A stretch of 64,000 nt of DNA from Syntrophaceae bacterium (GCA_003139775.1 PLGI01000080.1:34063-98062), one strand, 5' to 3'. Shown: positions 44,932 through 64,000, counted from the stretch's first letter. Numbers and translations are program-made. Notes: generated from the letters alone by a model not told the origin.

Positions 44932-45627
44932 ATGCGCGCACACTACTTACAGCACATTCCATTTGAAGGGCTTGGCAGCATCGCACCCTGGCTTGAAGCG
45001 TCCGGATACGAAATAACAGGTACTAAGTTATTTGAGTCAGCAAAGTACCCTAATCTAAAAGAGATAGACCTGCTAGTGATTTTGGGCGGTCCGATGAGCA
45101 TAAATGATAAAGATGAATTTTCCTGGCTTGCTTCTGAAAAACAATTTATCCATGAATCCATCAATTCAGGAAAGCCAGTCCTGGGTATTTGTCTTGGTGC
45201 GCAGCTTATTGCCAGTGCGTTAGGTGCCAGACTATACCGTAATTCCGTGAAGGAGATAGGGTGGTTTCCCATCTATGGGATTTCATCGAACAACAAATCC
45301 ATTTTTAGTTTCCCGCCGTCAGTGAAAGTTTTCCATTGGCACGGTGAGACATTTGACTTACCATCAGGAGCAACTCGCCTCGCGAAGAGTGACGTCTGCG
45401 AAAACCAGGCATTTCAATTCGGCAATTCGGTTATCGGCTTGCAGTTTCACTTGGAAACTACACCAATAGCGGCGTGCGACATTGTATCCCATTGTCGCAG
45501 TGAATTGGTTCCATCGAAGTACATACAAACGGAGGAAGAAATTTTGTCAGCTAAGCCTAGGAGATATAAATTAGTAAATAAGCTGATGGGCAGCATACTT
45601 TCTTTCATGCTTAGAAACAATGGCTAA
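44932..45627 (+). CDS. Class I glutamine amidotransferase (GMP synthase GATase-domain-like, stand-alone)
   Basis: 231-aa ORF with PVLGICLGAQLIA and FHWHGETF...LQFHLE. Confidence 0.8.
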   Translation: MRAHYLQHIPFEGLGSIAPWLEASGYEITGTKLFESAKYPNLKEIDLLVILGGPMSINDKDEFSWLASEKQFIHESINSGKPVLGICLGAQLIASALGARLYRNSVKEIGWFPIYGISSNNKSIFSFPPSVKVFHWHGETFDLPSGATRLAKSDVCENQAFQFGNSVIGLQFHLETTPIAACDIVSHCRSELVPSKYIQTEEEILSAKPRRYKLVNKLMGSILSFMLRNNG

Positions 45628-47396: not shown

Positions 47397-47852
47397 CACC
47401 ATTAACAGAAATGTACCCTACAGCAAGAACCGCGCATGCTAATTGAAAATTGATAGGAATAACGATAGTATAAGTCAACAAAATAAGAAAAATCCTTAAA
47501 GACAAAAGCTGAATTAAAGCATAGCGGAAAGATTTGATAATAATTGGTTAACTCCTTGTTCTGAAGATCTACAAATTAATTATTCTTAGCACAATTTTGT
47601 AACAAATTGCTTTAAGGAGTTAGTAAAAAGATCAAAATAATGGTGAAGATCAAAAATCATGGTAAAACTCCAACGATTCTTAAAGAACTCTAATGTCATT
47701 ATAAATCCACGATAAAAATTCCGAAAAGATGAACATGACTTTTTGTAACGATTTGTAAGATATTTTAGGTACATTCTATAAAGATAAAAATATTAGTTGC
47801 TATTAGCATATTTTTTTTATAAAATTAATGATTAAGGTTCTATGCTCATTAT

Positions 47853-48412
47853 ATGAGCAGAATTTTGATAAAACTATTTGTCAGGAAAGATACGACCTTG
47901 AGCGTTTATAGTTACGAAGAATCAGCCACCCTATACGCAATTGTCAAGCCGTAGGCGCAGCTGAGGTATTTGGACGATCAGTTGAAGCAAATCATCGACG
48001 AAATTAGCTTGCGTCTGGGTATGCAAAAGAATTTGATTTCGTCGTTGGATCGCGAAAAAAGAGGTTTGGTTCTGCATTGCTTATGGTATCGATAGAGAAG
48101 GGGTGAATATAACTTATAAACCCGGCTTCTATAAATGGCCGGATAACGTGTGGAAATTGGAAAATTGCATTAAGCAAGATGTTTTATTATCAAAGACTAA
48201 TACTATAGATTGCCAGCATCTTCCACCTTTATTGCAAATAGCGGAAAAGAAAATTGAGAAGTAAAGATAAAAATGCTTTCTTCTGTTGTTGAAATTTAAG
48301 AAAAAGTTTAATTATTAAAGACTTGGAAGAAAACAGGTGGTAACCAGACAGAAGCTGCTTATAAAAGTATGAAGACAAATTATAAAGCAACAATTGCAAA
48401 TAAAAGTTTAAG
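47853..48412 (+). pseudogene. Decayed paralog of the sigma-54 EBP (stop codons, frameshift, AAA+ domain deleted)
   Basis: Reads MSRILIKLFVRKDTTLSVYSYEESATLYAIVKP*AQL...SLRLGMQKNLISSLDREK. After the A-run at 48055-48060 it continues in the +1 frame as KEVWFCIAYGIDREGVNITYKPG, which joins directly to YKWPDNVWKLENC. HTH remnant: TGGNQTEAAYKS. Confidence 0.8.
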
Positions 48413-48529: not shown

Positions 48530-48546
48530 TTGGTATGAATATAGCA
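48530..48546 (+). promoter_or_regulatory. Candidate sigma-54 (-24/-12) promoter of the 10-gene operon
   Basis: TTGGTATGAATATAGCA has GG (48532-33) - N10 - GC (48544-45). It lies about 150 nt upstream of 48697. Confidence 0.4.
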
Positions 48547-48696: not shown

Positions 48697-49116
48697 GTGT
48701 TGCAACTGAATACTCACATTCCTAAAATATATCTCTTCTATTGTGCAACAAGCTACGATCAAGAAGAATTGTTGAAAAGTTATTCCCTGCAGGCCGTCGA
48801 GATTAAAGTAGTATCATTGCCCTGTTCTGGAAAACTGGACATTCTTTACCTCACTAAAGCATTTGATACCGGTGCGGATGGGGCTGCCATTCTGATATGC
48901 AAAGAAGGCGAATGTCATTATATGGAAGGTAATATGCGCGCCAGAAAACGTGTACAAGCCGTCGACGAATTACTGGAAGAAGCTGGCCTCGGAAAAGGCC
49001 GGACTAAAATAATTCAGATGGGAGACAAGGGTATCACAGGGGCCGTCCATGAATTAGAAGATTTCTTACTTCAAATAAAGACAATGGTTGAAAATGCTCC
49101 ATCTTTGCAAAAATAG
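48697..49116 (+). CDS. MvhD/FlpD-like protein, cysteine-depleted variant
   Basis: 139-aa ORF that aligns with the canonical MvhD at 61627 (LPCSGKLDILYLTKAFDTGADGAAILICKEGECHY). The N-terminal FCCHYC motif is replaced by FYCATS. GTG start. Confidence 0.7.
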   Translation: MLQLNTHIPKIYLFYCATSYDQEELLKSYSLQAVEIKVVSLPCSGKLDILYLTKAFDTGADGAAILICKEGECHYMEGNMRARKRVQAVDELLEEAGLGKGRTKIIQMGDKGITGAVHELEDFLLQIKTMVENAPSLQK

Positions 49117-49163
49117 AAGACAGAGTAGTTTTTCGTCAGTCCATAACAGAAGGAGTACAGGGT

Positions 49164-50054
49164 ATGAAACCTGATAGTAAATTAGCAGTTAAAACCAGCG
49201 GCAAAGAATTTATTTTCACTGCCGAGTATTTGCCGGTTGCCGGTACCGAGTTAACGATTGATCCTGAAATATTCGGTAGCGGTGTGACAGCGGTAAACGT
49301 AGCTGATAATCATTATGGTGTATCCATTTCTAGCATGGCAGCTTCTTTAGCATTGAAGCAGACTGGCATTGAACCAGTGCTTCAAATTATAACTAGAGAC
49401 CGCAATCGCATTGCGCTCCAATCCGATCTGTTGGGAGCCGTTTCTCTTGGTATTAAAAATGTATTGTGTCTTTCCGGTTTTCACCAAACTCTCATCGGCT
49501 GCAGTGAATCAGCCAATGTCTTTGACATTGATTCCATTCAACTCATCGATATGGTTAGAAAGATGAATGACGGAGAGTTGCTGGACGGTTCGAAAATCCA
49601 AGGGAAATTCTGTCTGCTGATCGGCGCTGCAGCTAATCCGGATTTGAAACCGATCGAACTGAATATATTAAAGTTAAATAAAAAAATAACCGCAGGAGCT
49701 AATTTTATTCAAACTCAACCTGTATTTGATGTTGATGCATTTAAAATCTGGCTGGAAGCCGTTCATAATGCAGGGCTTGCCGATAAAGCAGCCTTTCTTG
49801 CCGGTGTTCTGCCGCTCAAGAGTGCGGCCCAAGCCAAAGAGCTGATCGAGTTGCATACTGATTTTGTTATTCCCGAAACGATCATTAACCGGTTGACGAA
49901 TGCCGGTGATCCCGAGGCTCAAAGAAAAGAAGGCGTTAAATTAACCGCTGAAATTATAAAGAAGCTTAAAGATCTTCCCGGATTAAAAGGTGTCCATATT
50001 TTATCCGGTGGCAACGAATCAGCTATTAACGAATTATTAGCGGCTATAAAGTAA
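49164..50054 (+). CDS. metF: Methylenetetrahydrofolate reductase catalytic subunit (MetF-like)
   Basis: 296-aa ORF with VNVADN, ITRDRNRIALQSDLLGA, NVFDIDSIQLI and FIQTQPVFD motifs. Confidence 0.8.
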   Translation: MKPDSKLAVKTSGKEFIFTAEYLPVAGTELTIDPEIFGSGVTAVNVADNHYGVSISSMAASLALKQTGIEPVLQIITRDRNRIALQSDLLGAVSLGIKNVLCLSGFHQTLIGCSESANVFDIDSIQLIDMVRKMNDGELLDGSKIQGKFCLLIGAAANPDLKPIELNILKLNKKITAGANFIQTQPVFDVDAFKIWLEAVHNAGLADKAAFLAGVLPLKSAAQAKELIELHTDFVIPETIINRLTNAGDPEAQRKEGVKLTAEIIKKLKDLPGLKGVHILSGGNESAINELLAAIK

Positions 50055-50067
50055 GAGACTGAATAAA

Positions 50068-51477
50068 ATGCCCAAGAAATATCATATTGAAACAAAAAAG
50101 ATTGCACCGAGATTGCCGAAAAGAGGTAAGTTCGGAATTGTTGATTGGCGTGAAGATTGTGCCCAGTGCCATAATTGCGTGAAAAAAGCCTGTGTGTATG
50201 ATCGCTATCGGCAGGAAATGCAGTATATCAAAAACCTGGATGAATTTAATTCCATGTTCTTTGAATGCATGGGTTGTTTTTCCTGCGTGCAGAAATGCAC
50301 GAAGGGTCTACTGGCTCTAACCGTGAATCCCGAATACGAACGCATGGGTAATGGTTATTTTACACCGGATATTATTCTAACTACTTGGAACCAAGCGGAA
50401 ACAGCCGGCATTCCTGTTTCCGGTGCCGGTTATCGCGGTAAGTTTACAGGTTCCGGGTTTGATTCTATGTGGACGGACATGTCTGAAATCGTCCGTCCAA
50501 CTCGCGACGGAATTCATGGTCGTGAATACATCAGTACCTCTGTCGATATCGGAAGAAAACCGAAATTACTTTCGTTTGAAAACAACAAACTGACTACTAC
50601 ATTACCACCGCTGGTAGACCTGCCGGTTCCGATAATCATTGAAATGTTCCCCGAGAAATATCACTTCCCCAATCTCATACCAATGTTATTGGCTGTCGCC
50701 GTTAAAACCGGCACAATGATAATTGTTGATTGGAAATATCATCATCTTTTAGGGGCCTATGAAGAAAACCATTTATCGAATATCATTTTTTATCTTGATA
50801 AAGAAACGCCGCTGCCACCCCCTGATATCCTTAAAAAGTTGCGTCTTATAGAGATCGTTGACAGTGATAGAATCGAACAACGGATAAACGAAATTAAAGC
50901 CGTCAATCCGGAATTGGTTGTTTCAATTAGAGTTGAACTGGATGCTTGCGGTGAGCAGAGATCTATAGAGCTTGCTCATCATCCTTTCATTGAAGTCATA
51001 CATATCGTGTCCGATATCAACGGTAATCAAACAGGGGCGGAAAAACCTAAATTCATAAAGGATATGACCCGGATCATCCATACGTCTCTTGTAAAAGACG
51101 GTATCAGGGATGAAATCACTTTGATTGCCAGTGGCGGTATTGCTCTGGCGGAACATATGGCAAAAGAGATAATCTGCGGCGCAGATGTCATCACAATCAA
51201 TATGCCGCTGCTAATTGGTCTTGAATGCCGTTTTTGTAAAAACTGTCGCGATGGTTTTGCCTGTCCAGCCAAGATTGAGACGATCACCGCCGAGTATGGG
51301 ATCGGACGTATGACAAATTTAATAGCCGTCTGGCATGACCAACTGATTGAAGTGATGGGAGCCATGGGAATGAGAGAAGCCCGCCGTCTGCGCGGTGAGA
51401 CCGGCCGTGCATTATTCTTTGAAGACCTTGAGGAGGAAACCTTTGGAAGGCATTTTGGCAAGAGAATTAGGGCTTAA
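50068..51477 (+). CDS. Ferredoxin-fused glutamate synthase FMN-domain paralog lacking the catalytic motifs
   Basis: 469-aa ORF with CAQCHNCVKKAC and CMGCFSCVQKC at the N-terminus. The C-terminal part reads LIASGGIALAEHMAKEIICGADVI...CRFCKNCRDGFACPAKIE and is homologous to the next gene. No GGMSFGS or QGAKPGxGG motif is present. Confidence 0.65.
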   Translation: MPKKYHIETKKIAPRLPKRGKFGIVDWREDCAQCHNCVKKACVYDRYRQEMQYIKNLDEFNSMFFECMGCFSCVQKCTKGLLALTVNPEYERMGNGYFTPDIILTTWNQAETAGIPVSGAGYRGKFTGSGFDSMWTDMSEIVRPTRDGIHGREYISTSVDIGRKPKLLSFENNKLTTTLPPLVDLPVPIIIEMFPEKYHFPNLIPMLLAVAVKTGTMIIVDWKYHHLLGAYEENHLSNIIFYLDKETPLPPPDILKKLRLIEIVDSDRIEQRINEIKAVNPELVVSIRVELDACGEQRSIELAHHPFIEVIHIVSDINGNQTGAEKPKFIKDMTRIIHTSLVKDGIRDEITLIASGGIALAEHMAKEIICGADVITINMPLLIGLECRFCKNCRDGFACPAKIETITAEYGIGRMTNLIAVWHDQLIEVMGAMGMREARRLRGETGRALFFEDLEEETFGRHFGKRIRA

Positions 51478-53023
51478 AGAAGTCCTGCCTGAAAATACAA
51501 TAAAAACATTGGTACCGCAGGTTGAGGTAGATCGAGAAGTCAAACCAGCGCCATCGCGCTATCGCAATGAGATAGCCAAATATATTATTCGGCGCAGTAG
51601 TGATTGCAAATTATGCGGTAAATGCGCTCAGGTTTGTCCGCATGGCGTACACGTATTGAAACCCGGTTATAAATTATTTTCTGCACCGCACTTGAACGTT
51701 TGTATAGGTCCTTCCTGCCAGAAGACAGACCATTATTGCATTGACCTCTGCCCGAATAAAGCGCTTCAAATGGTTGAAAATCCGATGTTGAAGTCGATGG
51801 GTGACTATCGCTGGACACCGGACATGCTTATGGCTACCTGGAAAATGGCAGAAACCGGGGAAGCGCCATTACCTGAGTATGGCTATGATTACGAGACGGG
51901 AGCTTCCGGCGGCGGGTTCGACCGATTGAGATTCAAGTTTCCTGAAAAACCGCCCGTTGAATTACAAGACGATGATATAGATACCAGTATTATACTTAAC
52001 AGACGAAACGATGGTCGGCCACAGGTGAAAATCGATGTTCCATGGTATGGTGGTGGAATGTCTTTCGGTTCCGTCAGTAACGTAATACAGCTTTCCAAAG
52101 CGCGTGCGGCCACCGCTTTCAATACCTTTACCTGTACCGGTGAAGGCGGTTACATGGAACGTATGAAGCCGTATGATGACCACGTTATCACCCAGATTGC
52201 CACCGGTCTTTTCGGCGTTCGTGAAGAAACGATCCAACGTGTCCGTATTGTTGAATTCAAATATGCTCAGGGGGCCAAGCCCGGTCTGGGCGGCCATTTA
52301 TTAGCTGATAAAGTTACACCCACAGTCGCCAAAATGCGTGAAACAGTTCTGGGTATTTCACTCTTTTCGCCGTTCCCGTTTCATAGCGTTTACTCGATTG
52401 AAGACCATCAGAAACACATGGACTGGATCAAACACGTTAACCGGCGAACCCTGATTGCCACCAAGGTCTCAACGCCTAACGATGTGGATATGGTTGCTGT
52501 CGGCAGTTATTCCGCCGGTACCCATATTGTGCATCTGGACGGCGGATACGGTGGAACCGGTGCCGCACCTGATATTGCTAAGAAGAATATCGCAATGCCC
52601 ATCGAATATGCTATCGTTAAAGTCCATCGTTTCTTGGAACAGGAAGGCATTCGCGACAAGGTAACGCTGATTGCTAGCGGCGGACTGCGAACATCTCATG
52701 ACATTGCGAAAGCTATTGCATTGGGGGCTGATGGTGTTGTCGTGGGCACGTCCGAGTTGGTGGCGCTGGGTTGTATCAGATGTTCACGCTGTGAAAGCGG
52801 TCGCGGCTGTCCGCGCGGCATTGCTACGACCGATCCCGAACTTGCGAAGGATATTGATCTTGACTGGGGTACACAGCGGATTATCAATATGTATGCTGCC
52901 TGGCGAAAAGAACTTGTAGAGATATTGAAACGGTTAGGACTGCGTAGCGTGAGTGAGTTGCGTGGGCGTACCGATCTTCTGATGCACCTTGATTATACGA
53001 ATGATTCGGAGACCCATCCATGA
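51395..53023 (+). CDS. Glutamate synthase FMN-binding domain protein with N-terminal 2x[4Fe-4S] (archaeal GltB domain-2 type)
   Basis: Reads CKLCGKCAQVCP, GGGMSFGSVS, KYAQGAKPGLGGHL, LIASGGLRTSHDIAKAIALGADGV and CSRCESGRGCPRGIATTD. The start is uncertain: ATG 51395 overlaps the upstream gene by 83 nt, and TTG 51455 behind GGAAGG is an alternative. Confidence 0.85.
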   Translation: MRPAVHYSLKTLRRKPLEGILARELGLKEVLPENTIKTLVPQVEVDREVKPAPSRYRNEIAKYIIRRSSDCKLCGKCAQVCPHGVHVLKPGYKLFSAPHLNVCIGPSCQKTDHYCIDLCPNKALQMVENPMLKSMGDYRWTPDMLMATWKMAETGEAPLPEYGYDYETGASGGGFDRLRFKFPEKPPVELQDDDIDTSIILNRRNDGRPQVKIDVPWYGGGMSFGSVSNVIQLSKARAATAFNTFTCTGEGGYMERMKPYDDHVITQIATGLFGVREETIQRVRIVEFKYAQGAKPGLGGHLLADKVTPTVAKMRETVLGISLFSPFPFHSVYSIEDHQKHMDWIKHVNRRTLIATKVSTPNDVDMVAVGSYSAGTHIVHLDGGYGGTGAAPDIAKKNIAMPIEYAIVKVHRFLEQEGIRDKVTLIASGGLRTSHDIAKAIALGADGVVVGTSELVALGCIRCSRCESGRGCPRGIATTDPELAKDIDLDWGTQRIINMYAAWRKELVEILKRLGLRSVSELRGRTDLLMHLDYTNDSETHP

Positions 53024-55635
53024 ATAACGGAATGATTGAAAAATTGCTACTCTCCCGGCGGAAGCTCATTGAAAAGTTACAAATTCCTGAACCCACTTAC
53101 AAAGGAGAGGAAGAAGGTGGGTGCGGTGTCGTTGGTTTTTGCGCCACTGAACCGATTGCTGCACGTCACATTCACGAACCTTCCAGGCAGATGCATAACC
53201 GCGGTAACGGTAAAGGCGGCGGAATTGCCGCTTTAGGCTTTATACCGGAACAACTTGGAGTTACCCGTGAAGTTCTGAACGACTATTACATGATACACAT
53301 AGCATTTCTCGATAATTCGGTCAGAATGGAACTTGAACAAAAATATATTACTCCTTATTTTGAAATTAAAACTTCCTGTCAGCTGGACACCGTTGCCGAC
53401 TGGACAACTATTCCTTCTTTAGAAGCAAAGCCTCCTGATGTCATGCGTTATTTTGTTCGCGTGAAGTCGGATGTGCTGGATGCCTTTATTTCAAAGAACA
53501 AATTTGATGGAATAAGTCGTGAAGAAGCAGAAGGCGAATTTCTGAGCCAGCAAAGCGTTAAGCTGAATCATGAATATTACGCGTCGTTAGGCGATAAAAA
53601 AGCCTTCGTCATGTCTTTCGGCAAGAATATTATGATCCTAAAGGTTGTTGGGTACGCAGAGTCCATTACCGATTATTATAAAATTGATGATTTGAAGGCA
53701 CATGTCTGGATTGCCCATCAGCGGTTCCCAACAAAAGGACGTGTCTGGCATCCAGGTGGTGCGCACCCGTTTGGAGTAATGAATACCGCACTGGTTCATA
53801 ACGGAGATTTTGCTAATTACAGTTCCGTCAGCGAGTATCTTGCGCAGCGTCATATATATCCGCAATTTTTAACTGATACCGAGGTTTCTGTCCAGATATT
53901 TGATTTGCTGGATAGGACCTATCACTATCCGCTGGAGTATATTATAGAAGCTCTGGCACCTACGACAGAAATAGATTTTGACAGACTTCCCAAAGATAAA
54001 CAGTCTGTCTATCGGGCAATTCAGGCAACTCATATTCATGCCTCACCGGACGGCCCCTGGTTCTTTATCATTGCCCATACCTTGTCCCAGGCCGACAAAT
54101 TTCAACTCATGGGTATCACTGATACTTCCATGCTCCGACCGCAGGTTTTTGCTTTTGCAGACGGGGAAGTTCAGGTAGGCTTGATCTGTTCCGAAAAACA
54201 AGCAATCGATGCGACATTGCTCAGCATGTCAAAAGATGACAGCCGCATCTGCCCGGTAGCCGATAAGTACTGGAATGCCCGGGGTGGCAGTTCGACGGAT
54301 GGCGGATCGTTCATTTTTACTCTTGAAAAAGACCAAGCCGGAAAATACAGATTGAATTGTAACGACAAATTCGGGGTTACGGTCAAATTACCGTCTGGAA
54401 CAGAGGTCGTCGATTTATCCGAGGAAATAAAACATTCCGGTGCTCAGACCGGTAATATTGAAAAAGGAATTCGCGAGAACTTTGATGTCGACAGTCAAAA
54501 GGTCTTTCGTCATATTATAGGAAAAATCGTTGATTGGTCCTTTGCAGAAGTATGGTTAGCCTGTGAAACAGTTATTTCGCTGGCTAAAGATTCGAATCAA
54601 TTCGCCAAAGCAATTGAAATATTGACTCTGTTGAACGACCGGCATTATGCTACCGGCACAAAGAAGCGTAAGCACATCCTGCAAATCGTTCGCACCGCTT
54701 TGCGCCAATTGCTCGGTCTTATCCCTTTGATAGAAGAAACATCGACAAGTGAGTTTCGGCTGATAAATTATAAAACCAGGCAACTTTTAAGAGAACCGCA
54801 GATTTGTGAGACGACTTTGGTGATTGATACGCTGGGTTTCTCACCTGAAGGAAACGAATCGAATTCCTCGCTTTTAATGGACGCTTACATGAAGGGCTGG
54901 AAACATTTCATTGTTTATAACTGTGCTGGACAGCGTTTTACCGGTTGCGGCTTGGGACCTCAAACTGAGGATGTTACAATCGATGTTTACGATAGCGATG
55001 GCGATTACCTCGCTTCCGGCATCGACGGTTTAACTATTAACGTTCACGGCAATGCTCAGGACCAATTGGGTCAGATTATCAAAGGTGGTAAATTGGTTAT
55101 TCACGGCGACACCGGACAAACATTCTTATATGGTGCCAAAGGTGGTTCTATTTTTGTTTTGGGTAATGCTGCCGGCCGTCCTCTGATTAATTCCGTAGGT
55201 AAGCCAAAGGTTGTGATCAACGGAACCTGCCTGGACTTCCTCGCTGAATCCTTCATGGCGGGTGACGTCTTTGCGGATGGCGGTTTTGTTATTTTAAACG
55301 GTATAACATTCGATGATAAAGGCAACTTAATTGATTTGAAAGAACCCTATCCGGGCGGCAATTTGTTTTCCCTCGCTTCCGGCGGTGCCATTTACGTTCG
55401 CGATCCTCGCAAGTATCTTGTCCGGGAGCAATTGAACGGCGGCAATTTTTTCAAGCTGACTGATCAGGACTGGGAAACTATCTTGCCTTATCTCGAAGAG
55501 AATGAACGTTTGTTTGGAATCAAGGTAGATGATTTGCTTACTGTCGACGGCAAACTTAAGCGGCCCGGTCAAGTCTACCGCAAAGTTGCCCCGGCCAAAC
55601 TGGCGGCTACCGCACAAATCGAATCGGATGAATAG
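53020..55635 (+). CDS. Glutamate synthase amidotransferase (class II GATase) fused to the GXGXG domain
   Basis: 871-aa ORF. There is a propeptide before the CGVVGF nucleophile, then HQRFPTKGRVWHPGGAHPF and LVHNGDFANY. The C-terminal GXGXG repeats read INVHGNAQDQLGQIIKGGKLVIHGDTGQTFLYGAKGGSIFVLGNAAGRP. ATGA overlap with the upstream gene. Confidence 0.85.
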   Translation: MNNGMIEKLLLSRRKLIEKLQIPEPTYKGEEEGGCGVVGFCATEPIAARHIHEPSRQMHNRGNGKGGGIAALGFIPEQLGVTREVLNDYYMIHIAFLDNSVRMELEQKYITPYFEIKTSCQLDTVADWTTIPSLEAKPPDVMRYFVRVKSDVLDAFISKNKFDGISREEAEGEFLSQQSVKLNHEYYASLGDKKAFVMSFGKNIMILKVVGYAESITDYYKIDDLKAHVWIAHQRFPTKGRVWHPGGAHPFGVMNTALVHNGDFANYSSVSEYLAQRHIYPQFLTDTEVSVQIFDLLDRTYHYPLEYIIEALAPTTEIDFDRLPKDKQSVYRAIQATHIHASPDGPWFFIIAHTLSQADKFQLMGITDTSMLRPQVFAFADGEVQVGLICSEKQAIDATLLSMSKDDSRICPVADKYWNARGGSSTDGGSFIFTLEKDQAGKYRLNCNDKFGVTVKLPSGTEVVDLSEEIKHSGAQTGNIEKGIRENFDVDSQKVFRHIIGKIVDWSFAEVWLACETVISLAKDSNQFAKAIEILTLLNDRHYATGTKKRKHILQIVRTALRQLLGLIPLIEETSTSEFRLINYKTRQLLREPQICETTLVIDTLGFSPEGNESNSSLLMDAYMKGWKHFIVYNCAGQRFTGCGLGPQTEDVTIDVYDSDGDYLASGIDGLTINVHGNAQDQLGQIIKGGKLVIHGDTGQTFLYGAKGGSIFVLGNAAGRPLINSVGKPKVVINGTCLDFLAESFMAGDVFADGGFVILNGITFDDKGNLIDLKEPYPGGNLFSLASGGAIYVRDPRKYLVREQLNGGNFFKLTDQDWETILPYLEENERLFGIKVDDLLTVDGKLKRPGQVYRKVAPAKLAATAQIESDE

Positions 55636-55665
55636 TTATTTTATTTCAAGAAAAGAGTATCGATA

Positions 55666-56235
55666 ATGACAATAAGAATAACAAAACACAAAGCCACTGA
55701 AGACTTTTTAAAACTAGTTCAGGAAAAAGCGGATGTAAATCTAAGCTCCTGCTACCAGTGTAAGAAATGTTCTATGGGCTGTCCTGTTGCCGACCTAATC
55801 AAGCTGCCACCTTCCGAGGTAATAAGAGGCCTTCAACTCGGGGCTGGAACTGAATTATTAAATACGGATCTCATCTGGACATGTCTTTCCTGTGAAACAT
55901 GTTACTCCAGGTGTCCTAATCAGATAAACTTTCCCGCTGTGATTGATGCTTTAAAGTCCATTGCTTTGGAAAAAGGAGCTGCAAAACCGGCGGGTGATGC
56001 ACCTTTATTTAACCGTTTATTCCTGAACACCGTCAAGTCTTACGGCCGCGTTTATGAATTGCTGGCGATTGCCATGTATAAACTGGGAACCGGTAACCTT
56101 AAGCAGGACATGGGTAAATTCCCCATGATGCTGAAAAAAGGCAAAATAGCAATTTTGCCTCCGTCCGGTGCGAACAAAGACAAAATGAAACGTATTTTCA
56201 GCAAATCAGCACAGAATAAAGGAACGGAAAAATGA
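55666..56235 (+). CDS. hdrC: Heterodisulfide reductase subunit C-like (2x[4Fe-4S])
   Basis: 189-aa ORF with CYQCKKCSMGCP and CLSCETCYSRCP. Confidence 0.85.
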   Translation: MTIRITKHKATEDFLKLVQEKADVNLSSCYQCKKCSMGCPVADLIKLPPSEVIRGLQLGAGTELLNTDLIWTCLSCETCYSRCPNQINFPAVIDALKSIALEKGAAKPAGDAPLFNRLFLNTVKSYGRVYELLAIAMYKLGTGNLKQDMGKFPMMLKKGKIAILPPSGANKDKMKRIFSKSAQNKGTEK

Positions 56236-57104
56236 GATACGCATATTATCCCGGTTGCTCTGCTCATTCTACTGCTCGTGACATGCATGAATCATGTCTG
56301 GCGGTATCAAAAGCGCTTGGTATTGAACTTAATGAAATAAAGGGCTGGACGTGTTGCGGTGCCAGTGCCGCTCATCAGACCGACCGGAAATTGGCTGTTT
56401 CTTTGGCTTCTGCCAACCTCCTTTTGGCCAAACAAATGGGTATGGACATGGTAGTCAATTGCGCCGCTTGCTACAACCGCTCAAAGACAGCCAATTATGA
56501 AATTATTAATTCCGAAAATGTAAGGAAATCGGTTGCCGATAGTCTTGGAGATACTTATGATGGTTCGGTTCCAGTACGGCACTTTGTTGAGATACTTTTG
56601 AAAGATATCGGACCGGTTAATTTACGTAAGAAAATTATTAACCCTTTAAGAGATCTGAAAGTGGCTGCTTATTATGGATGTTATCTTGTGCGTCCGTCGG
56701 AAGTAACCAACTTTGACGATCCTGAAAATCCAACGATCATGGAAAGCTTGATTGATGCGATAGGCGGTACTAATGTGGAGTGGTCGGGCAAAGTGGATTG
56801 CTGCGGTGGTATGCAAAATCTTACCCAAACGGAAATTACCGTCCGGCGTTCTGCGGCAGTAATAGATATGGCTCAGGCTGCCGGCGCCGAATGTATCGTC
56901 GTCGCCTGTCCCATGTGCCAAGTAAGCCTCGATGTCCGACAGGCAGACATGGAAAAACTTCTCGGCAGAAAATATAATATGCCGGTTATTTATCTTACGC
57001 AGTTAGTTGGTCTTGCTCTCGGACTTTCGCCTGTAGAACTCGGGTTTAACAAACTCATGGTAAATCCGGCAGCCGTATTAAACAAAGTCAAAGCAGCAGC
57101 CTAG
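56232..57104 (+). CDS. hdrB: Heterodisulfide reductase subunit B-like (two CCG domains)
   Basis: 290-aa ORF with YYPGCS...WTCCGAS...CAACY and YYGCY...VDCCGG...CPMCQ. ATGA overlap with hdrC. Confidence 0.88.
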   Translation: MRYAYYPGCSAHSTARDMHESCLAVSKALGIELNEIKGWTCCGASAAHQTDRKLAVSLASANLLLAKQMGMDMVVNCAACYNRSKTANYEIINSENVRKSVADSLGDTYDGSVPVRHFVEILLKDIGPVNLRKKIINPLRDLKVAAYYGCYLVRPSEVTNFDDPENPTIMESLIDAIGGTNVEWSGKVDCCGGMQNLTQTEITVRRSAAVIDMAQAAGAECIVVACPMCQVSLDVRQADMEKLLGRKYNMPVIYLTQLVGLALGLSPVELGFNKLMVNPAAVLNKVKAAA

Positions 57105-57155
57105 TAAAGACTGCTTATTGATAACAGATGATTAAAGGCTACTTAAGGTTAGAAT

Positions 57156-60100
57156 ATGCATAAAAGTGAAAAGAAATTAACAGGTGCGGTTCTTGTTCAG
57201 GGGGGAGGTATTGCCGGTATTCAGGCAGCCCTGGACCTCGCTGATTCCGGGTTCAAAGTCTATCTGGTTGAGCGTAATGCGGCTATCGGCGGCATGATGG
57301 CACAGCTGGACAAGACGTTCCCCACCGGAGATTGTGCCACCTGTATAGTATCGCCTAAACTTGTTGAATGCGCCCGCAATATCAATATTGAGATACTTAC
57401 CCTTTCTGAGCTCATCGGTTTGGAAGGAGAACCGGGTCATTTTAAAGCTAAAGTCAAGGTCTCTCCCAGATATGTGGATGAAATTAAGTGCAATGCGTGT
57501 GGTCAGTGCACGGATGTGTGTCCGGTCAACGTGCCCAATCCATTTGATCGTGAGATGGGTACGCGAAAGGCAATCGCCAAGCTCTATGCTCAAGCAACAC
57601 CTAACAAGTTTGGTATTCTAAAGAACGGGCATTCGCCGTGCAAGGTAGAGTGCCCGGCAAACATTAATGTCCAGGGCTACATTCAATTAATTAAGAAAAA
57701 GGAATACCTCAAGGCCGTTAATCTGATTCGGGAGCGAAACCCGCTCTCTGCCATCTGCGGACGGGTTTGTACACACCCATGTGAATCCAAATGCACGCGT
57801 AATGACATTGATTCATCCGTTTCCATAAGATTGTTGAAACGTTTCGCTTCAGACCAGGAAATGGAAATGGTCAGGTCCGGAAAACTAGCTCTTCCGGAAG
57901 AGAAGACTCCATCCATGAGTGCCAAAAAGATTGCTGTAATCGGCGCTGGGCCTGCCGGTCTTACTGCTGCCGCTGATCTAGCTGACAGGGGCTATGCTGT
58001 AACAGTTTACGAAGCCACGTCTGAAGCCGGCGGCATGCTACGCTGGGGAATCCCCGCTTACCGTCTACCGAAAGATGTGTTGAGCTACGAAATTGAACTG
58101 ATCCGCCGCAAGGGAATCAAGTTCGTCTACAAAACGCGTATCGGTACCGATATTTCCATGGAAAAATTACGCCAGGAAAATGATTCTGTCTTTATCAGTG
58201 TCGGTACACAGAGTAGCCGAAAGCTTAACGTCGAGGGTGAAGATAAAACCGGAATCTCCTACGGTCTGGAGTTCCTGCGTCGGGCCGGCGACAAAGACAA
58301 TCGTCCCAAACTGCGCGGTAAAGTCGTGGTAATCGGCGGCGGCAACGTCGCTGTTGATGTGGCCCGCTCCGCGATACGCCTCGGCGCCGACTCCGTTGAA
58401 ATGGTCTGCCTGGAACAGCGTTATGAGATGCCGGCTTTACCCGAAGAAGTTGCCGCCGCTCTCGAAGAGAACATAAAAATCAACAACGGCTGGGGCCCGA
58501 AGCGTGTTCTCGGAAACAGCAAAGTCAGCGGAATCGAGCTAAAACGCTGCACAAGAGTTTTTGATGAAAACGGCCGGTTCAGCCCCGCATACAGCGAGAA
58601 TGAAACGACCACATTAAATGCCGACCAAATCATCGTTGCCATCGGTCAAGCAATCGATCAGGAATCTCTCAGCAACATGGGAGCGGCAACTGAACGCAAT
58701 TTTTACAAAGTCGATAAGATCACCCTGGAAACATCAGTAAAAGGAGTATTTGCCGGTGGCGATGATATTCCGGGCAGCGCTTCCGTAATCGGCGCTGTGG
58801 GCGCGGGCAAACGGGCAGCGGAATCGATTGATCGTTATCTCAAAGGCGAAGACATGTTGTCCGCCCGGTTTGAATCAACCGTGAAACCTCTTGTTCCGGA
58901 ATTACTGCCGGAAACCAAAGGCAAAGAAAAGATACCGCGTACCGAGCAGGCAATGTTGCCGGTTACTCAACGTGCCAATAATTTCATTGAAATCGAAATG
59001 GGTCTTACTGAAGAAGATGCCCTCGCAGAAGCAGAGCGCTGCCTTAATTGCGCCCTCTGTTCAGAGTGTCTGGAATGCGTTGCCGCCTGTGAACAACATG
59101 CTGTTGACCATTTCATGACGGAAAGGATTATCGAGCTTGCTGTCGGTTCCGTTATCCTTGCACCCGGTTTTGAGGAGTTTGATGCTGCGAAAAAAGGTGA
59201 GTACGGCTACGATCGGTACCCGAATGTGATTTCCAGCGTACAGTTCGAGCGCATGCTTTCAGCTTCCGGACCATTCGACGGCCATGTGATTCGAAGATCC
59301 GACGGACAGCCGGCCAAACGAGTTGCTTGGATTCAGTGTGTCGGTTCACGGGATACTCGTTGTGGCAATGAGTATTGTTCTTCGGTCTGCTGTATGGTTT
59401 CCACAAAACAATCGATGATTGCCGCTGATCATTTGCCCGGGCTAGAAGCGACCATCTTTAACATGGATATTCGGGCTCATGGTAAGGACTTTGATCAGTA
59501 CTATGAGCGCGCCAAGAAGCAAGGTGTAAATTATGTAAAAGGCATACCGTCCCGCATCATCCAGATGCCCGGTACCAAAGACCTGCGGGCGACATTCTAT
59601 AACGAAGCCAATCAACTGCAGGAGAATGACTTTGACCTGGTTATTTTATCTGTAGGTATGGAACCCGGTTTATCTGCCGTGGATACTGCCAAACGTCTGG
59701 GAATTGAACTGAATGAATACGGTTTTTGCTTGACTGATCGCTTTACGCCGTTGAATACTTCGCGGCCAGGGGTTTTTGTCGGCGGCGCTTTCCAGGAACC
59801 GAAAGATATCCCGGAAACTGTCACCCAGGCCAGCGCCGCAGCTTCCATGGCCATGGAACTTTTATCCTCTGCCCGCAATACGCTGGTTGCCAAACCAATT
59901 TACCCGGCTGAGCACGATGTTACCGATGAAGATCCTCGAATCGGTGTTTTCATTTGCCACTGCGGCCGTAACATTGCATCTGTAGTCGATGTGGAGAAAG
60001 TAGCTGACTCTGTAGCTAAGGAACCGAATGTAATCTTAGCCACTCACACATTATTTACCTGTTCCGATACAAGTCTGGTCGATATTCGTAATGCTATCCG

Positions 60101-61622
60101 AGATAACCGGCTTAATCGAATTGTTGTGGCTTCCTGCACACCACGGACTCACGAACCGATCTTCAGAGATACTTTGCGTGAAGCAGGTTTGAACCAGTAT
60201 TTATTCGAAATGGCTAATATTCGTGATCAATGTTCATGGGTACACTCGACCATGCCTGAGAAAGCCACACAAAAAGCCTCAGAGCTGGTCAGGATGGCCA
60301 TAGCCCGCTCCCGCAGGTTGGTTCCACTACAAAGTTCTTATTCCAAAGTCGTCCAGAATGGTCTAGTGATCGGTGGCGGCATCAGCGGCATGACCTCTGC
60401 TCTTTCCCTAGCTGATCAGGGATTCAAAACACACTTGGTCGAAAGGTCGGATAAGCTGGGAGGTTACTGCCTCAATCTGCATTCCACTCTGGAACACGAT
60501 AAAGTTGATGGATTTCTCAACGCATTGATTAAACGTGTTCAGAATAATGACAACATCGTTCTGCACATGAACAGTGAAGTGAAAAACGTCGCCGGTTTTG
60601 TGGGTAATTTCGAGGTTACGCTTAGCAAGCTTAATGAAGAAACGATTGTGCCGTGCGGTGCAATCGTTGTCGCAACTGGAGCCATGCCAGCTGTTACCAA
60701 AGATTTCCATTATGGTCAGGATGCCAGTATCCTGACTCAATCGGAATTGGAAAACGCCTTACAAAGAGGCACTTTTTCTTCCGCCAATCGCAACATCGTC
60801 ATGATCCAGTGTGCCGGTTCACGCAATGAAGAAAGACCGTATTGCAGCCGTATTTGCTGTTCAATGGCAGTTAAGAATGCTCTCAAACTGAAAAAGCAGA
60901 ATCCCGATACAAATATCATCGTTCTCTACCGTGATATCCGCACTTATGGTTTCCGTGAAAAATATTATAAACAGGCCCGTGAAGCAGGCGTCATTTTTAT
61001 GAGATACGAAAACGATTATCCTCCGGTTATTTCCGACAATCATGGTCTAGTTACGTTGAAGAGTCCCGATTTTCCGGAACCGGTAGAAATTGAAACCGAT
61101 GCCATTGTGTTAAGTACGGGTATCGATGCCTTGAAGGATAACCGTAAGCTTGCGGACATGCTCAAGGTACCTTTGAATGGTGATGGCTTTTATGTGGAGG
61201 CTCACATGAAGCTACGGCCTGTCGAGTTTGCCACTGAAGGTATTTATCTTTGCGGCATGGCTCATTCGCCGAAAATGATCGATGAAAATATCTCGCAGGC
61301 AAGAGCGACCGCTGCCCGTGCGGCGACCATACTTTCCAAGGTTCAACTGGAAGTCGGCGGTCAGATCTCCAGCGTCGATCAGGAAAAATGTATATCCTGT
61401 ATGACCTGCGTGAGGGCGTGTCCTTATCATGCGCCGCTTGTTAATGTTAACAATAAAGCGGAAATTGTTGCCGCCGCGTGTATGGGTTGCGGCATTTGCG
61501 CTTCGGAATGTCCGGCACATGCCATCCAGTTGCGAAATTTCGAATCTGATCAGTTTGAAGATATGTTAAAAGCTTTATTATCAGAATCGGAGGAAAAGAA
61601 ACCGGCATCAGTACCGAAATAG
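57156..61622 (+). CDS. hdrA: Giant HdrA-like flavoprotein: HdrA interrupted by a GltD/NfnB-like NAD(P)H module, followed by a second HdrA unit
   Basis: 1488-aa ORF with four dinucleotide-binding motifs: GGGIAGIQAALDLA, GAGPAGLTAAADLA, GGGNVAVDVARSA and GGGISGMTSALSLA. It carries the GltD-type cluster region GRVCTHPCESKC. HdrA signatures WIQCVGSRD...YCSSVCC and IQCAGSRNE...YCSRICC are present. The C-terminal part reads CISCMTCVRACP/CMGCGICASECP. Confidence 0.85.
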   Translation: MHKSEKKLTGAVLVQGGGIAGIQAALDLADSGFKVYLVERNAAIGGMMAQLDKTFPTGDCATCIVSPKLVECARNINIEILTLSELIGLEGEPGHFKAKVKVSPRYVDEIKCNACGQCTDVCPVNVPNPFDREMGTRKAIAKLYAQATPNKFGILKNGHSPCKVECPANINVQGYIQLIKKKEYLKAVNLIRERNPLSAICGRVCTHPCESKCTRNDIDSSVSIRLLKRFASDQEMEMVRSGKLALPEEKTPSMSAKKIAVIGAGPAGLTAAADLADRGYAVTVYEATSEAGGMLRWGIPAYRLPKDVLSYEIELIRRKGIKFVYKTRIGTDISMEKLRQENDSVFISVGTQSSRKLNVEGEDKTGISYGLEFLRRAGDKDNRPKLRGKVVVIGGGNVAVDVARSAIRLGADSVEMVCLEQRYEMPALPEEVAAALEENIKINNGWGPKRVLGNSKVSGIELKRCTRVFDENGRFSPAYSENETTTLNADQIIVAIGQAIDQESLSNMGAATERNFYKVDKITLETSVKGVFAGGDDIPGSASVIGAVGAGKRAAESIDRYLKGEDMLSARFESTVKPLVPELLPETKGKEKIPRTEQAMLPVTQRANNFIEIEMGLTEEDALAEAERCLNCALCSECLECVAACEQHAVDHFMTERIIELAVGSVILAPGFEEFDAAKKGEYGYDRYPNVISSVQFERMLSASGPFDGHVIRRSDGQPAKRVAWIQCVGSRDTRCGNEYCSSVCCMVSTKQSMIAADHLPGLEATIFNMDIRAHGKDFDQYYERAKKQGVNYVKGIPSRIIQMPGTKDLRATFYNEANQLQENDFDLVILSVGMEPGLSAVDTAKRLGIELNEYGFCLTDRFTPLNTSRPGVFVGGAFQEPKDIPETVTQASAAASMAMELLSSARNTLVAKPIYPAEHDVTDEDPRIGVFICHCGRNIASVVDVEKVADSVAKEPNVILATHTLFTCSDTSLVDIRNAIRDNRLNRIVVASCTPRTHEPIFRDTLREAGLNQYLFEMANIRDQCSWVHSTMPEKATQKASELVRMAIARSRRLVPLQSSYSKVVQNGLVIGGGISGMTSALSLADQGFKTHLVERSDKLGGYCLNLHSTLEHDKVDGFLNALIKRVQNNDNIVLHMNSEVKNVAGFVGNFEVTLSKLNEETIVPCGAIVVATGAMPAVTKDFHYGQDASILTQSELENALQRGTFSSANRNIVMIQCAGSRNEERPYCSRICCSMAVKNALKLKKQNPDTNIIVLYRDIRTYGFREKYYKQAREAGVIFMRYENDYPPVISDNHGLVTLKSPDFPEPVEIETDAIVLSTGIDALKDNRKLADMLKVPLNGDGFYVEAHMKLRPVEFATEGIYLCGMAHSPKMIDENISQARATAARAATILSKVQLEVGGQISSVDQEKCISCMTCVRACPYHAPLVNVNNKAEIVAAACMGCGICASECPAHAIQLRNFESDQFEDMLKALLSESEEKKPASVPK

Positions 61623-61626
61623 GAAA

Positions 61627-62076
61627 ATGAATATGAATAATAACTTCGAACCTAAAATCGTGGCCTTTTGCTGCCACTATTGTGCCTATGCCGCCGCAGA
61701 TCTTGCCGGTTCAGGCCGTTTACAATATCCGCCTAATATCCGTATTATCCGGTCGCCGTGTACCGGCAGATTGGAAATCGACTTTTTTATGAAGGCCTTT
61801 GAGGCGGGCGCTGATGGCGTGCTGGTTGCCGGCTGTGAGGAAGGAAGTTGTCACTTCAAAGAAGGTAATTACCTAGCCAAGCGTCGGGTCAACACGACAA
61901 AACAGTTACTGCTGGAAGCAGGTCTGGAGCCGGAGCGGCTACGCATGGTGAATGTGAGCGCCGCCAGTTCCCAGAAATTTGTCGAATACGTTCGTGACAT
62001 GGTGGAGACCGTTGCGAAGCTTGGTCCCACGCGTAACAAAAAGACTACCACTAAAGAAAAAACAGGAGCAATATAA
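61627..62076 (+). CDS. mvhD: Methyl-viologen-reducing hydrogenase delta subunit-like protein (MvhD)
   Basis: 149-aa ORF reading KIVAFCCHYCAYAAADLAG...IRIIRSPCTGR...GADGVLVAGCEEGSCHF. Confidence 0.88.
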   Translation: MNMNNNFEPKIVAFCCHYCAYAAADLAGSGRLQYPPNIRIIRSPCTGRLEIDFFMKAFEAGADGVLVAGCEEGSCHFKEGNYLAKRRVNTTKQLLLEAGLEPERLRMVNVSAASSQKFVEYVRDMVETVAKLGPTRNKKTTTKEKTGAI

Positions 62077-62744
62077 TGATCGTTGCCGAAAGAAAAACCA
62101 TTCCTGAAATGGTCGAGATTTTAAAACCGCATAAGAAAATTCTGGTGCTGGGTTGTGGAACCTGCGTCACTGTCTGTTTGTCCGGAGGAGAACGGGAGGT
62201 CAGTATCATCTCTTCAGCGCTGCGAATCGCGTCACGCATTCAAGGCTTAAACTTTGAAATAGCTGAACTCACCATCGAGCGCCAGTGTGATAACATCTTC
62301 ATCGAACAGGCGGCAGAAGCCATCCAGAAAGCCGATGCAGTATTGTCAACGGCCTGCGGTGCCGGAGTCCAGGCTATTGCCGAACGTTATCCTCAGAAGC
62401 CGGTTTATGCCGGATTAAACACAACCTTCCTCGGTATTCTCGAGGAGCGCGGTGTATGGACGGAGAAGTGTGCTGCCTGTGGTGCCTGTGTCCTGCACAA
62501 ATACGGTGGTATCTGTCCAATCACCAGGTGCGCTAAGCGTATGATGAACGGGCCCTGTGGAGGGTCTCGCGAAGAGAGATGCGAAGTGCGAAAGGACAGA
62601 CCCTGTGCATGGCAGCTTATCTTCAAGAGGCTCAAGGATATCAATCAGCTCGAAAGGCTCAAGGAAATAGAACCAGCCAAGAACTGGAATTCAAGCCTGT
62701 CCGGAGGCCCCAGAATGTTAATAAGGGAGGACCATAAAATATAG
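62076..62744 (+). CDS. metV: Methylenetetrahydrofolate reductase zinc/iron-sulfur subunit (MetV, MTHFR_C domain)
   Basis: 222-aa ORF with LGCGTCVTVC, CAACGACVL and ITRCAKRMMNGPCGGS. TAATG overlap with mvhD. Confidence 0.8.
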   Translation: MIVAERKTIPEMVEILKPHKKILVLGCGTCVTVCLSGGEREVSIISSALRIASRIQGLNFEIAELTIERQCDNIFIEQAAEAIQKADAVLSTACGAGVQAIAERYPQKPVYAGLNTTFLGILEERGVWTEKCAACGACVLHKYGGICPITRCAKRMMNGPCGGSREERCEVRKDRPCAWQLIFKRLKDINQLERLKEIEPAKNWNSSLSGGPRMLIREDHKI

Positions 62745-63140: not shown

Positions 63141-63156
63141 TGGCATGTTTTTCGCT
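63141..63156 (+). promoter_or_regulatory. Sigma-54 (-24/-12) promoter of glnA
   Basis: TGGCATGTTTTTCGCT has GG (63142-43) - N10 - GC (63154-55), a close match to TGGCAC-N5-TTGCW. It lies 43 nt upstream of the glnA ATG. Confidence 0.7.
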
Positions 63157-63198: not shown

Positions 63199-64000
63199 TA
63201 TGGCCGAAATAAAAACACCAAAGGATGTTCTTGAGTTAATTAAAAAGGAAAAGGTGAAGATAGTTGATCTGCGATTCATGGATTTCCCCGGAATTTGGCA
63301 GCATTGCAGCTATCCTATAAGTCAGATTGATGAAGCCGTATTTACCGAGGGATTGGGATTTGACGGTTCATCAATTCGCGGCTGGAGGGCGATTAATGAG
63401 TCTGATATGCTTATCATACCGGTGCCTTCCACTGCATTTATTGATCCCTTTACTGCTGTTAAGACCTTGGTGATGATATGCAACATCCAGGATCCTGTGA
63501 CCGGTGCCGATTACACCAGAGATCCCCGCAACATAGCAATAAAAGCGGAAAATTATCTCAAGAAGCTTGGCTTGGCTGATACGGCTTATTTTGGGCCGGA
63601 GGCGGAATTCTTTATTTTCGATGACATACGTTATGATCAGAAAACTAACGAAGGCTACTATCATATTGACAGCGTGGAAGGCATCTGGAACAGCGGCAGA
63701 GTTGAGGATCCAAACCTGGGCTATAAAGTTCGCCATAAAGAAGGGTATTTTCCTGTACCGCCTACCGATAGCCTGATGGATTTGCGCTCTGAAATGGCTC
63801 TAGCCCTTGAAAACATCGGGATTGAAGTTGAGGCTCAGCATCATGAAGTAGCTACAGCCGGACAGGCAGAGATTGATATGAAGTTTTCACCTCTGGTAGA
63901 AATGGCGGATAATCTATTAAAATTTAAATATATACTTAAGAACACTGCCAAGAAGTATAATAAGACAGTGACATTCATGCCGAAGCCGTTATTTGGCGAC
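63199..64000 (+). CDS. glnA: Glutamine synthetase type I (5' part; runs off the window)
   Basis: Not in the ORF track because there is no stop in the window. My own translation starts at ATG 63199 (AAGGAG 7 nt upstream). It reads MAEIKTPKDVLELIKKEKVKIVDLRFMDFPG...FGPEAEFFIFD...HHEVATAGQAEIDMKF...FMPKPLFGD. Confidence 0.92.

Follow-up and report, generated by a model that had tools for sequence, protein, structure and literature searches.

A conserved ten-gene cluster of a Syntrophaceae bacterium that may encode a glutamate synthase with HdrA-type electron input

Closest described systems and layout of the locus

Nitrogen enters biomass mainly through glutamate synthase (GOGAT); the known enzymes use NAD(P)H or ferredoxin as electron donor, and an F420-dependent form has been reported for archaea. 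We analyzed ten genes at positions 48697–62744 of a 64,000-nucleotide (nt) stretch of DNA from a Syntrophaceae bacterium (GCA_003139775.1, PLGI01000080.1:34063-98062; the whole stretch is referred to as the window), in which GOGAT-type genes stand together with genes of another system, the methylenetetrahydrofolate (methylene-THF) reductase complex MetFV-HdrABC-MvhD of Moorella thermoacetica. This complex, a type III methylene-THF reductase (MTHFR), was described by Mock et al. (2014) and is summarized in PMC5736913 and PMC6085437. Its second electron acceptor is not known. All six of its subunit types (MetF, MetV, MvhD, HdrA, HdrB, and HdrC) are encoded in the cluster. The best-supported reading of the ten genes is an NADH-dependent glutamate synthase on a MetFV-HdrABC-MvhD chassis, possibly with bifurcation to ferredoxin. 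We assign roughly even probability to the proposition that they encode one nitrogen-regulated multi-subunit glutamate synthase with electron input of the HdrA type, provided by a complex derived from MetFV-HdrABC-MvhD.

Several features set the cluster apart from the Moorella complex. Its MetF-like subunit lacks the catalytic Asp, and no competent MetF terminal reductase is predicted; a second MvhD lies between metV and metF if the gene order is taken as circular. HdrA consists of two modules in one protein of 1488 residues and carries a GltD insert, three genes of GOGAT type stand among the others, and the genomic context is nitrogen assimilation, not the Wood–Ljungdahl pathway.

With NADPH-dependent GltBD, ferredoxin-dependent GltS, and the split archaeal-type GOGAT, the cluster shares an N-terminal nucleophile (Ntn) Cys after a leader, a flavin mononucleotide (FMN) barrel with the QGAKPG Lys and an Arg, an iron–sulfur (Fe-S) cluster motif beside the FMN, a GXGXG β-helix, and a GltD-type pyridine-nucleotide module. 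Unlike in these enzymes, the glutamine amidotransferase (GATase) and GXGXG domains form one protein and the FMN domain is separate, fused to a 2×[4Fe-4S] domain; an additional, presumably non-catalytic FMN-domain paralogue is present, four Cys, not three, make up the cluster motif, and GltD is embedded in HdrA.

HdrA proteins of the latter kind have been described: HdrL was named in Desulfobacterium autotrophicum (PMC2702500), and a "type III" HdrA with a GltD/NfnB insert is known from ANME-1 and Bathyarchaeota (PMC9012536, PMC12054007). As in our locus, these carry a GltD-type NAD(P)H module in the HdrA ferredoxin domain and are followed by mvhD; the neighbors given in the three papers are dsr, fdh, mvh, and further hdr genes, and a link to GOGAT is not reported there. 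The best structural relatives of the GltD insert belong to the bifurcating transhydrogenases NfnAB and StnABC, which, in contrast to the cluster, are NADPH-binding enzymes with a YRR motif and lack parts of the Hdr, MetFV, and GOGAT types. Compared with heterodisulfide reductase HdrABC, which reduces CoM-S-S-CoB, the hosts here are bacterial, and the Cys sets of HdrB and HdrC match. In a paper on a Smithella genome, the region appears as "Hdr/Flox" and also, separately, as GS/GOGAT genes (PMC5606693). No description of an Hdr-linked glutamate synthase was found in the literature searched, whose coverage is incomplete and leaves many subscription papers outside; an earlier note on this DNA, made by a model from the sequence, likewise knew of no enzyme of this composition. 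The parts are known individually, and no paper that was found connects them with glutamate-synthase genes.

The cluster consists of the following genes:

48697–49116, + strand: gene 1, MvhD-like protein (MvhD′), 139 amino acids
49164–50054, + strand: gene 2, MetF-like TIM-barrel flavoprotein (MetF′), 296 amino acids
50068–51477, + strand: gene 3, GltB′, a paralogue of the FMN subunit with a 2×[4Fe-4S] domain and a C-terminal half barrel
51395–53023, + strand: gene 4, glutamate-synthase-type FMN subunit (GltB) with an N-terminal 2×[4Fe-4S] domain; start codon uncertain
53020–55635, + strand: gene 5, predicted Ntn glutamine amidotransferase, helical linker, and GXGXG β-helix, 871 amino acids
55666–56235, + strand: gene 6, HdrC, 2×[4Fe-4S]
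56232–57104, + strand: gene 7, HdrB, two CCG domains
57156–61622, + strand: gene 8, HdrL-type HdrA-GltD-HdrA fusion, 1488 amino acids
61627–62076, + strand: gene 9, canonical MvhD
62076–62744, + strand: gene 10, MetV

Open reading frame (ORF) analysis reproduced the ten same-strand ORFs of the earlier note, with gaps of 47, 13, 30, 51, and 4 nt and stop/start overlaps at 53020, 56232, and 62076, and searches with Pfam and NCBIfam profiles, from which the domain calls were made, bore out the domain order that it had predicted for all ten genes. The longest ORF of gene 4, starting with GTG at 51395, shares 83 nt with gene 3; the gene probably starts further downstream, because its orthologues align only from residue 9–13 and the overlap with gene 3 is elsewhere called at about 35 nt. 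A terminator scan detected no terminator-like site on the + strand in the intergenic gaps, as the note had also stated for hairpins, and a pattern scan gave no further σ54-like site inside the cluster. Promoter-like matches were not above chance (37 against a shuffled expectation of 32 ± 5.5), and the weak promoter-like and terminator-like matches fall within coding regions; nothing splits the cluster. In an Rfam scan of the window, only tRNA was found, with no riboswitch or leader.

Conservation of gene order and of catalytic residues

A scan of one genome per species yielded 35 loci (designated L001 and so on), and single look-ups added further lineages. The same ten genes in the same order were present in every locus long enough to hold them (Smithella, Syntrophaceae, Leptospirales/Spirochaetota, and Thermodesulfobacteriota), and look-ups gave the same gene order in Dehalococcoidia, Syntrophorhabdus, Verrucomicrobiota, and Sedimentisphaerales, the last locus ending inside hdrL with genes 1–8 visible. 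The ten-gene order was found in at least six phyla of anaerobic bacteria. Three further loci (L009, L022, and L030), which end inside gene 3, have the circularly permuted order 5-6-7-8-9-10-1-2-3 with all visible adjacencies kept. Because the order is identical in at least six phyla and survives circular permutation, the gene neighborhoods indicate that the ten genes are one unit. This was the view of the earlier note, and the comparison of lineages that it called for shows the GOGAT genes recurring between metF′ and hdrCB.

Identities between phyla are high, at 62–70% for gene 5, 71–74% for gene 4, and 73–81% for MetV, the most conserved subunit, pointing to strong constraint and probably to lateral transfer; the family of gene 5 comprises more than 7600 clusters at 90% identity. 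The closest relatives are Smithella-like Syntrophales from metagenomes (87–97% identity), and a protein search for a cultured host, made from a Syntrophus-like orthologue, returned metagenome-assembled genomes only. At L032 (5088–19273), all ten genes are present, but shifts of frame split them into many pieces; either a copy in decay or a long-read assembly of low quality could account for this.

Variant clusters were located through representatives of the MetF-like family. In L039, FlpD-MetF-GltB′ is followed by ferredoxin, FMN domain, GATase, and GXGXG as separate genes and then by HdrC-HdrB. Loci L040 and L041 encode an activator, amtB, glnK, glnA, GATase-I, and NadE, followed by FlpD-MetF′-GltB′-GltB-gene 5. 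In L044, the same five genes come after gdhA, GAF-ANTAR, gdhA, and NrpR; at 15021–18408 of this locus, an N-terminal part of HdrA with a NuoE-like domain, a NuoF-like protein, and a NuoG-like N-terminus joined to the rest of HdrA were found, and these Nuo-like parts occupy the same HdrA site as the GltD insert, i.e., a module swap. Such variants, L044 included, indicate that MvhD′-MetF′-GltB′-GltB-GATase/GXGXG is a stable core and that the NADH-oxidizing module is exchangeable. The description of the GOGAT genes as an insert in a Met/Hdr gene set, given in the earlier note, does not fit this picture, in which MvhD′-MetF′ stays with the GOGAT genes and the NADH module is exchanged. GOGAT genes are missing from locus L046, which has hdrA-mvhD-metV-metF. 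The MetF encoded there shares 46% identity with gene 2 and is the closest non-GOGAT relative containing the catalytic Asp; for this reason, descent of the MetF-like protein from an Hdr-linked MetVF is the ancestry indicated by the comparison. In L039, a HicA/HicB toxin–antitoxin pair (16055–16464) follows hdrB at the place expected for hdrL, and the contig ends soon after.

Gene 4 matched Fer4 and Glu_synthase (PF01645, 308 bits) and aligned with residues 856–1170 of the α subunit of Azospirillum GltS (E = 6e-52). It retains QGAKPG, the Arg of MRET, SPFPFHSVYSIED (the SP.P.H..YSIED motif), and ASGG; in the alignment, the counterparts of QGAKPG and MRET in canonical GltB are QGAKPG and TRHS. 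The Lys of QGAKPG and this Arg correspond to the residues that hold both 2-oxoglutarate carboxylates in GltS structures. The Fe-S motif (C460/C463/C466/C472) is invariant, a four-Cys variant of the GltS Cx5Cx4C, and aligns with Cys1102/1108/1113 of Azospirillum GltS.

Gene 5 matched GATase_6 weakly and GXGXG (PF01493) at 52 bits. Its motifs EEEGG/C35GVVGF, HQRFPTKG, and HNGDFANY are unchanged in 28/28 orthologues. Cys35 is preceded by a 34-residue leader, and the canonical GltB encoded at L029 also carries its Cys behind a leader; with these features gene 5 is predicted to be an Ntn (class II) amidotransferase whose N-terminal Cys becomes exposed after leader processing. A dead amidotransferase, considered because the Pfam match begins at residue 227, was ruled out by the invariance of Cys35 and its motif. 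In the AlphaFold2 model (mean predicted local distance difference test score of 69.7, medium confidence), the best PDB matches were GltS α chains (E = 8e-11 to 7e-7), followed by GlmS and PurF, and residues ~465–566 were modeled as a helical linker. The amidotransferase assignment rests on the motifs and on this model, since hhalign profile comparison with canonical GltB aligned only the GXGXG part (GltB residues 1298–1462). Glu_syn_central (PF04898) had no match in gene 5 and only a marginal one inside gene 4. Taken by their invariant Cys, 2-oxoglutarate Lys/Arg motifs, and Fe-S motifs, the GOGAT parts look active.

Gene 3 matched Fer4 and part of Glu_synthase. It keeps the ferredoxin domain, ASGG, and the CxxCxxCx5CP cluster motif, with 13 invariant Cys; the substrate-binding segment QGAKPG...SIED is deleted in all orthologues, which agrees with the description of an FMN-domain paralogue without catalytic motifs in the earlier note. 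Because this whole segment is missing, gene 3 is read as non-catalytic and probably serves as an electron-transfer or scaffold subunit.

Gene 2 matched MTHFR (PF02219, 108 bits). It had been read as MetF; it is not a canonical one, since its LSGF aligns with LRGD of human and Escherichia coli MTHFR and Phe106 stands where those enzymes have their catalytic Asp (Asp120 in E. coli). At this site 26/26 orthologues read L[ST]G[YF]HQ, with Tyr or Phe always at the Asp position; this Asp is present in 116 of 150 representatives of the family. The position is D in L039, Y in L041, and T in L044, and R in an FlpD-adjacent homologue on a short contig. The equivalent of Glu28 (TAEYLP) is invariant among orthologues, and that of Gln183 is Gln in the window and His in about half of the orthologues. 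We read the MetF-like subunit as a flavin relay rather than a methylene-THF reductase.

Gene 1 (FlpD, PF02662, 85 bits), called Cys-poor in the earlier note, still has four invariant Cys (16, 43, 68, and 73; conserved in 30–31/31) and is in every case immediately followed by the MetF-like gene, the variants L039, L041, L043, and L044 included. Gene 9 matched the same family at 172 bits, with five Cys invariant (30/30) and a sixth in 26/30 orthologues, and gene 10 matched MetV (PF12225, 124 bits), with 13 invariant Cys. In the Verrucomicrobiota locus L047 (5283–6149), gene 1 was called at 288 amino acids, about twice the usual length, possibly an N-terminal extension or a start-codon artefact.

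The HdrC-type Fer4 protein of gene 6 has eight invariant Cys, and HdrB (gene 7; TIGR03288, 215 bits) has two CCG domains with ten invariant Cys (2 × 5). HdrL matched the structure 5odc_A (E = 4e-176). Its first module (residues 1 to ~900) has a flavin adenine dinucleotide (FAD) motif and an inserted ferredoxin domain, which is split by the GltD insert at ~144–600; the second (~925–1488) consists of the HdrA N-terminal domain, FAD motif, and C-terminal ferredoxin domain, and has no inserted domain. By this domain composition, the two modules together form an asymmetric pseudo-dimer. The FAD GxGxxG and CxGSR[DN]...C..CC motifs occur in both modules (15–20 and 728–746; 1073–1078 and 1219–1235), and these flavin and cluster motifs are invariant across phyla. 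Cluster motifs at 111–125 and 629–650 flank the GltD insert, and mvhD begins 4 nt downstream of the gene. The nearest structures of the insert are NfnA/StnC/NfnB (9n5u, 9bov, 8oh5, and 4ylf). In it, CLEQ replaces the YRR of NADPH-binding Nfn and GltD, including that of NADPH-GltBD, and [CSA]LE[QKAS] is found in every HdrL orthologue; because the Arg pair for NADPH is lost, NADH is the expected nucleotide.

Nitrogen context of the cluster

The features flanking the cluster in the window are as follows:

42981–42996: σ54-like site (GG-N10-GC) before the intact activator
43041–44660, + strand: intact GAF-σ54-helix-turn-helix (NifA-like) activator
44744–44817: tRNA-Gln, anticodon CTG, between the activator and class-I amidotransferase genes; the only Rfam/ARAGORN match in the window
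44932–45627, + strand: class-I glutamine amidotransferase
46053–47396, + strand: citrate synthase
47838–48359, + strand: activator relic (tblastn)
48531–48546, + strand: σ54-type −24/−12 element TGGTATGAATATAGCA (GG-N10-GC), 151 nt upstream of gene 1
63141–63156, + strand: σ54-type element TGGCATGTTTTTCGCT (GG-N10-GC) before glnA
63200–64000, + strand: glnA, incomplete, running to the end of the window

Upstream of the activator lies a minus-strand aminotransferase gene. Both the glnA gene with its σ54 site behind the cluster and the relic of a σ54 enhancer-binding protein before it had been noticed in the earlier note and were recovered here. The relic matches residues 8–104 and 428–504 of the activator, with the AAA+ core deleted and in-frame stops. 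An intact activator takes the position of the relic in four loci of the scan (L001, L002, L004, and L005), so that in the window the functional activator seems to have been shifted 4 kb upstream by a duplication or rearrangement. Orthologues of this activator adjoin the cluster in Smithella, Syntrophaceae, and Spirochaetota loci, and the protein encoded at 43041–44660 is likely the regulator of the cluster.

The element before gene 1 fits 8 of 11 σ54 consensus positions. Nine related loci (L001, L002, L004, L005, L007, L020, L011, L015, and L027) have elements of the same spacing 102–213 nt before gene 1, and these fit better (TGGCAC-N5-TGGCA). With 5 occurrences where 9.2 are expected, GG-N10-GC shows no enrichment across the window; support for the σ54 sites comes only from position and from conservation in relatives.

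Different lineages place different nitrogen genes beside the cluster. Downstream glnA recurs in six Smithella-clade loci (L002, L004, L005, L006, L007, and L020); NrpR is encoded immediately upstream in Dehalococcoidia and Syntrophaceae loci, amtB-glnK together with the activator in one Spirochaetota locus, and glnK-amtB in one deltaproteobacterial locus. NrpR and NifA-like activators are sensors of 2-oxoglutarate. The nitrogen linkage proposed earlier is strengthened by these unrelated regulators and genes and by the positional conservation of the −24/−12 element upstream of gene 1 in Syntrophia, and the cluster appears to be nitrogen-regulated. Canonical gltB (1514 amino acids in L029) and gltD lie divergently beside the cluster in L029 (604–5148) and in L013, both of Spirochaetota/Leptospirales.

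Between NrpR and the cluster, L015 (3276–4865) encodes a 529-residue FMN protein, labeled "glutamate synthase-related", whose N-terminus carries a Cys cluster; this adds a third type of GltB-like gene to the neighborhood. At 37321–39231 of the window, three consecutive + strand ORFs (269, 236, and 137 amino acids) had no Pfam match at E ≤ 1e-5.

Proposed function and its alternatives

A glutamate synthase encoded by the cluster would catalyze Gln + 2-oxoglutarate + 2 e− → 2 Glu. We infer the following electron path. NADH would be oxidized at the GltD insert of HdrL, from which electrons would reach the HdrA flavin and there take two branches. One would lead via MvhD, MetV, MvhD′, and the MetF-like flavin to the Fe-S clusters of GltB′ and GltB and finally to FMN, where 2-iminoglutarate, formed from 2-oxoglutarate and ammonia channeled from the Ntn amidotransferase of gene 5, would be reduced. 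The other would use HdrC/HdrB, the C-terminal ferredoxin domain of HdrL, or both to reach a second acceptor, for which ferredoxin is the most likely candidate. The circular order hdrC-hdrB-hdrL-mvhD-metV-mvhD′-metF′-gltB′-gltB-gat may itself be read as this electron path.

The low-potential reductant would be paid for by the strongly exergonic GOGAT reaction. By estimates from textbook values, GOGAT with NAD(P)H yields about −45 to −50 kJ/mol, and transfer of two electrons from NADH to ferredoxin requires about +25 to +35 kJ/mol, so that bifurcation to ferredoxin appears feasible; it would suit hosts without other sources of low-potential electrons. More tentatively, and on balance we consider this rather doubtful, the complex might be a new class of flavin-based electron-bifurcating enzyme, in which 2 NADH reduce 2-iminoglutarate and ferredoxin or another low-potential carrier, so that part of the cost of the glutamine synthetase–GOGAT route is returned. 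It would be common among uncultured anaerobes that live under energy limitation, in six phyla or more, and would have arisen by grafting GOGAT onto the MetF end of MetFV-HdrABC-MvhD, with the loss of folate chemistry.

Several observations weigh against an NADH-driven glutamate synthase. The active-site motif of gene 4 is PGLGGHL in all members, variants included, where canonical GltB has PGEGGQL (E→L, Q→H), and the substrate could for this reason differ from that of GltS. Both CCG sites are kept in HdrB, which points to a substrate of the thiol/disulfide type that has no place in the proposed path. The NADH module is inserted in that domain of HdrA from which electrons normally pass to ferredoxin, the insert site being the ferredoxin branch in methanogen HdrA (PMC12054007); NAD(H) could therefore be an acceptor and not the donor. 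The MetF of L039 retains its Asp, so a folate function is possible for some members. In some genomes canonical gltBD or gdhA adjoins the cluster, which is then not the sole route to glutamate, and the neighbors in L047 and L048 are unrelated to nitrogen.

Part of these points feeds the idea of a different reaction, namely a Gln-dependent reductive aminase for another 2-oxo acid or imine, a GOGAT-like enzyme of the N-methylglutamate-synthase kind, or a thiol/disulfide purpose of HdrB, whose active-site Cys are intact. PGLGGHL in every member, the strong divergence of the amidotransferase domain, for which no sequence-level match to canonical GltB was obtained, and the coexistence with canonical gltBD speak for it. 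The Lys and Arg of the GltS 2-oxoglutarate site are kept, however, the neighbors include glnA, amtB-glnK, and the 2-oxoglutarate-sensing NrpR and NifA-like regulators, and citrate synthase is encoded upstream in the window; we regard another substrate as unlikely. A plain, non-bifurcating NADH glutamate synthase, with the Hdr and MetFV parts as a long wire and HdrBC vestigial or structural, seems to us equally improbable. The reaction indeed needs no second acceptor, canonical GltD modules feed electrons linearly, and no ferredoxin gene was found in the operon by ORF and Pfam analysis. Yet all ten Cys of HdrB, all Cys of HdrC, and the flavin/cluster motifs of both HdrA modules are invariant, which would be unexpected in vestigial parts, and the alternative NADH module of L044 is of the NuoEF type, which occurs in established bifurcating enzymes.

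The earlier note had left a choice between an Hdr/GltD-driven glutamate synthase and a coupling of 2-oxoglutarate amination with methylene-THF reduction. The former is favored; the latter is weakened by the loss of the catalytic Asp in gene 2. In its broader form, with a shared Hdr core that reduces both 2-iminoglutarate and methylene-THF or couples methyl-/methylene-THF redox to glutamate synthesis, it has in its favor the constant presence of MetF-like and MetV genes, with MetV the most conserved subunit, and it draws on the retention of Glu28, of Gln183 in the window, and of the Asp in L039, as well as on the kinship of MetF′ with Hdr-linked MetVF. We nevertheless consider it quite improbable: Phe or Tyr replaces the Asp in 26/26 orthologues, the variant clusters and the FlpD-adjacent homologue show D/Y/T and R, about half of the lineages have His in place of Gln183, the neighbors are nitrogen genes instead of those of one-carbon pathways, and the fluxes of anabolic GOGAT and MTHFR are more than tenfold apart. 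Least probable by far is a side-by-side arrangement of three independent units (metF, GOGAT, and hdr). A promoter-like site belonging to glnA itself and the weak promoter- and terminator-like matches inside coding regions might be cited for it; the matches are at the shuffled level, stop and start codons overlap, and independent neighboring units are ruled out by synteny that is conserved in at least six phyla and keeps its visible junctions on permutation.

Cluster genes of this kind are called "methylenetetrahydrofolate reductase", "heterodisulfide reductase", or "Hdr/Flox", which on our reading is a systematic annotation error, and they serve as markers of one-carbon and energy metabolism in metagenome studies (e.g., PMC5606693). 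An NADH-dependent glutamate synthase on the MetFV-HdrABC-MvhD chassis would also amount to a natural experiment on the Moorella-type complex, here attached to a different and strongly exergonic reaction. If true, an Hdr-wired glutamate synthase adds a new electron-input design to this enzyme family; if the enzyme is bifurcating, it would represent a new energy-saving anabolic step for syntrophs and other organisms living near the thermodynamic limit.

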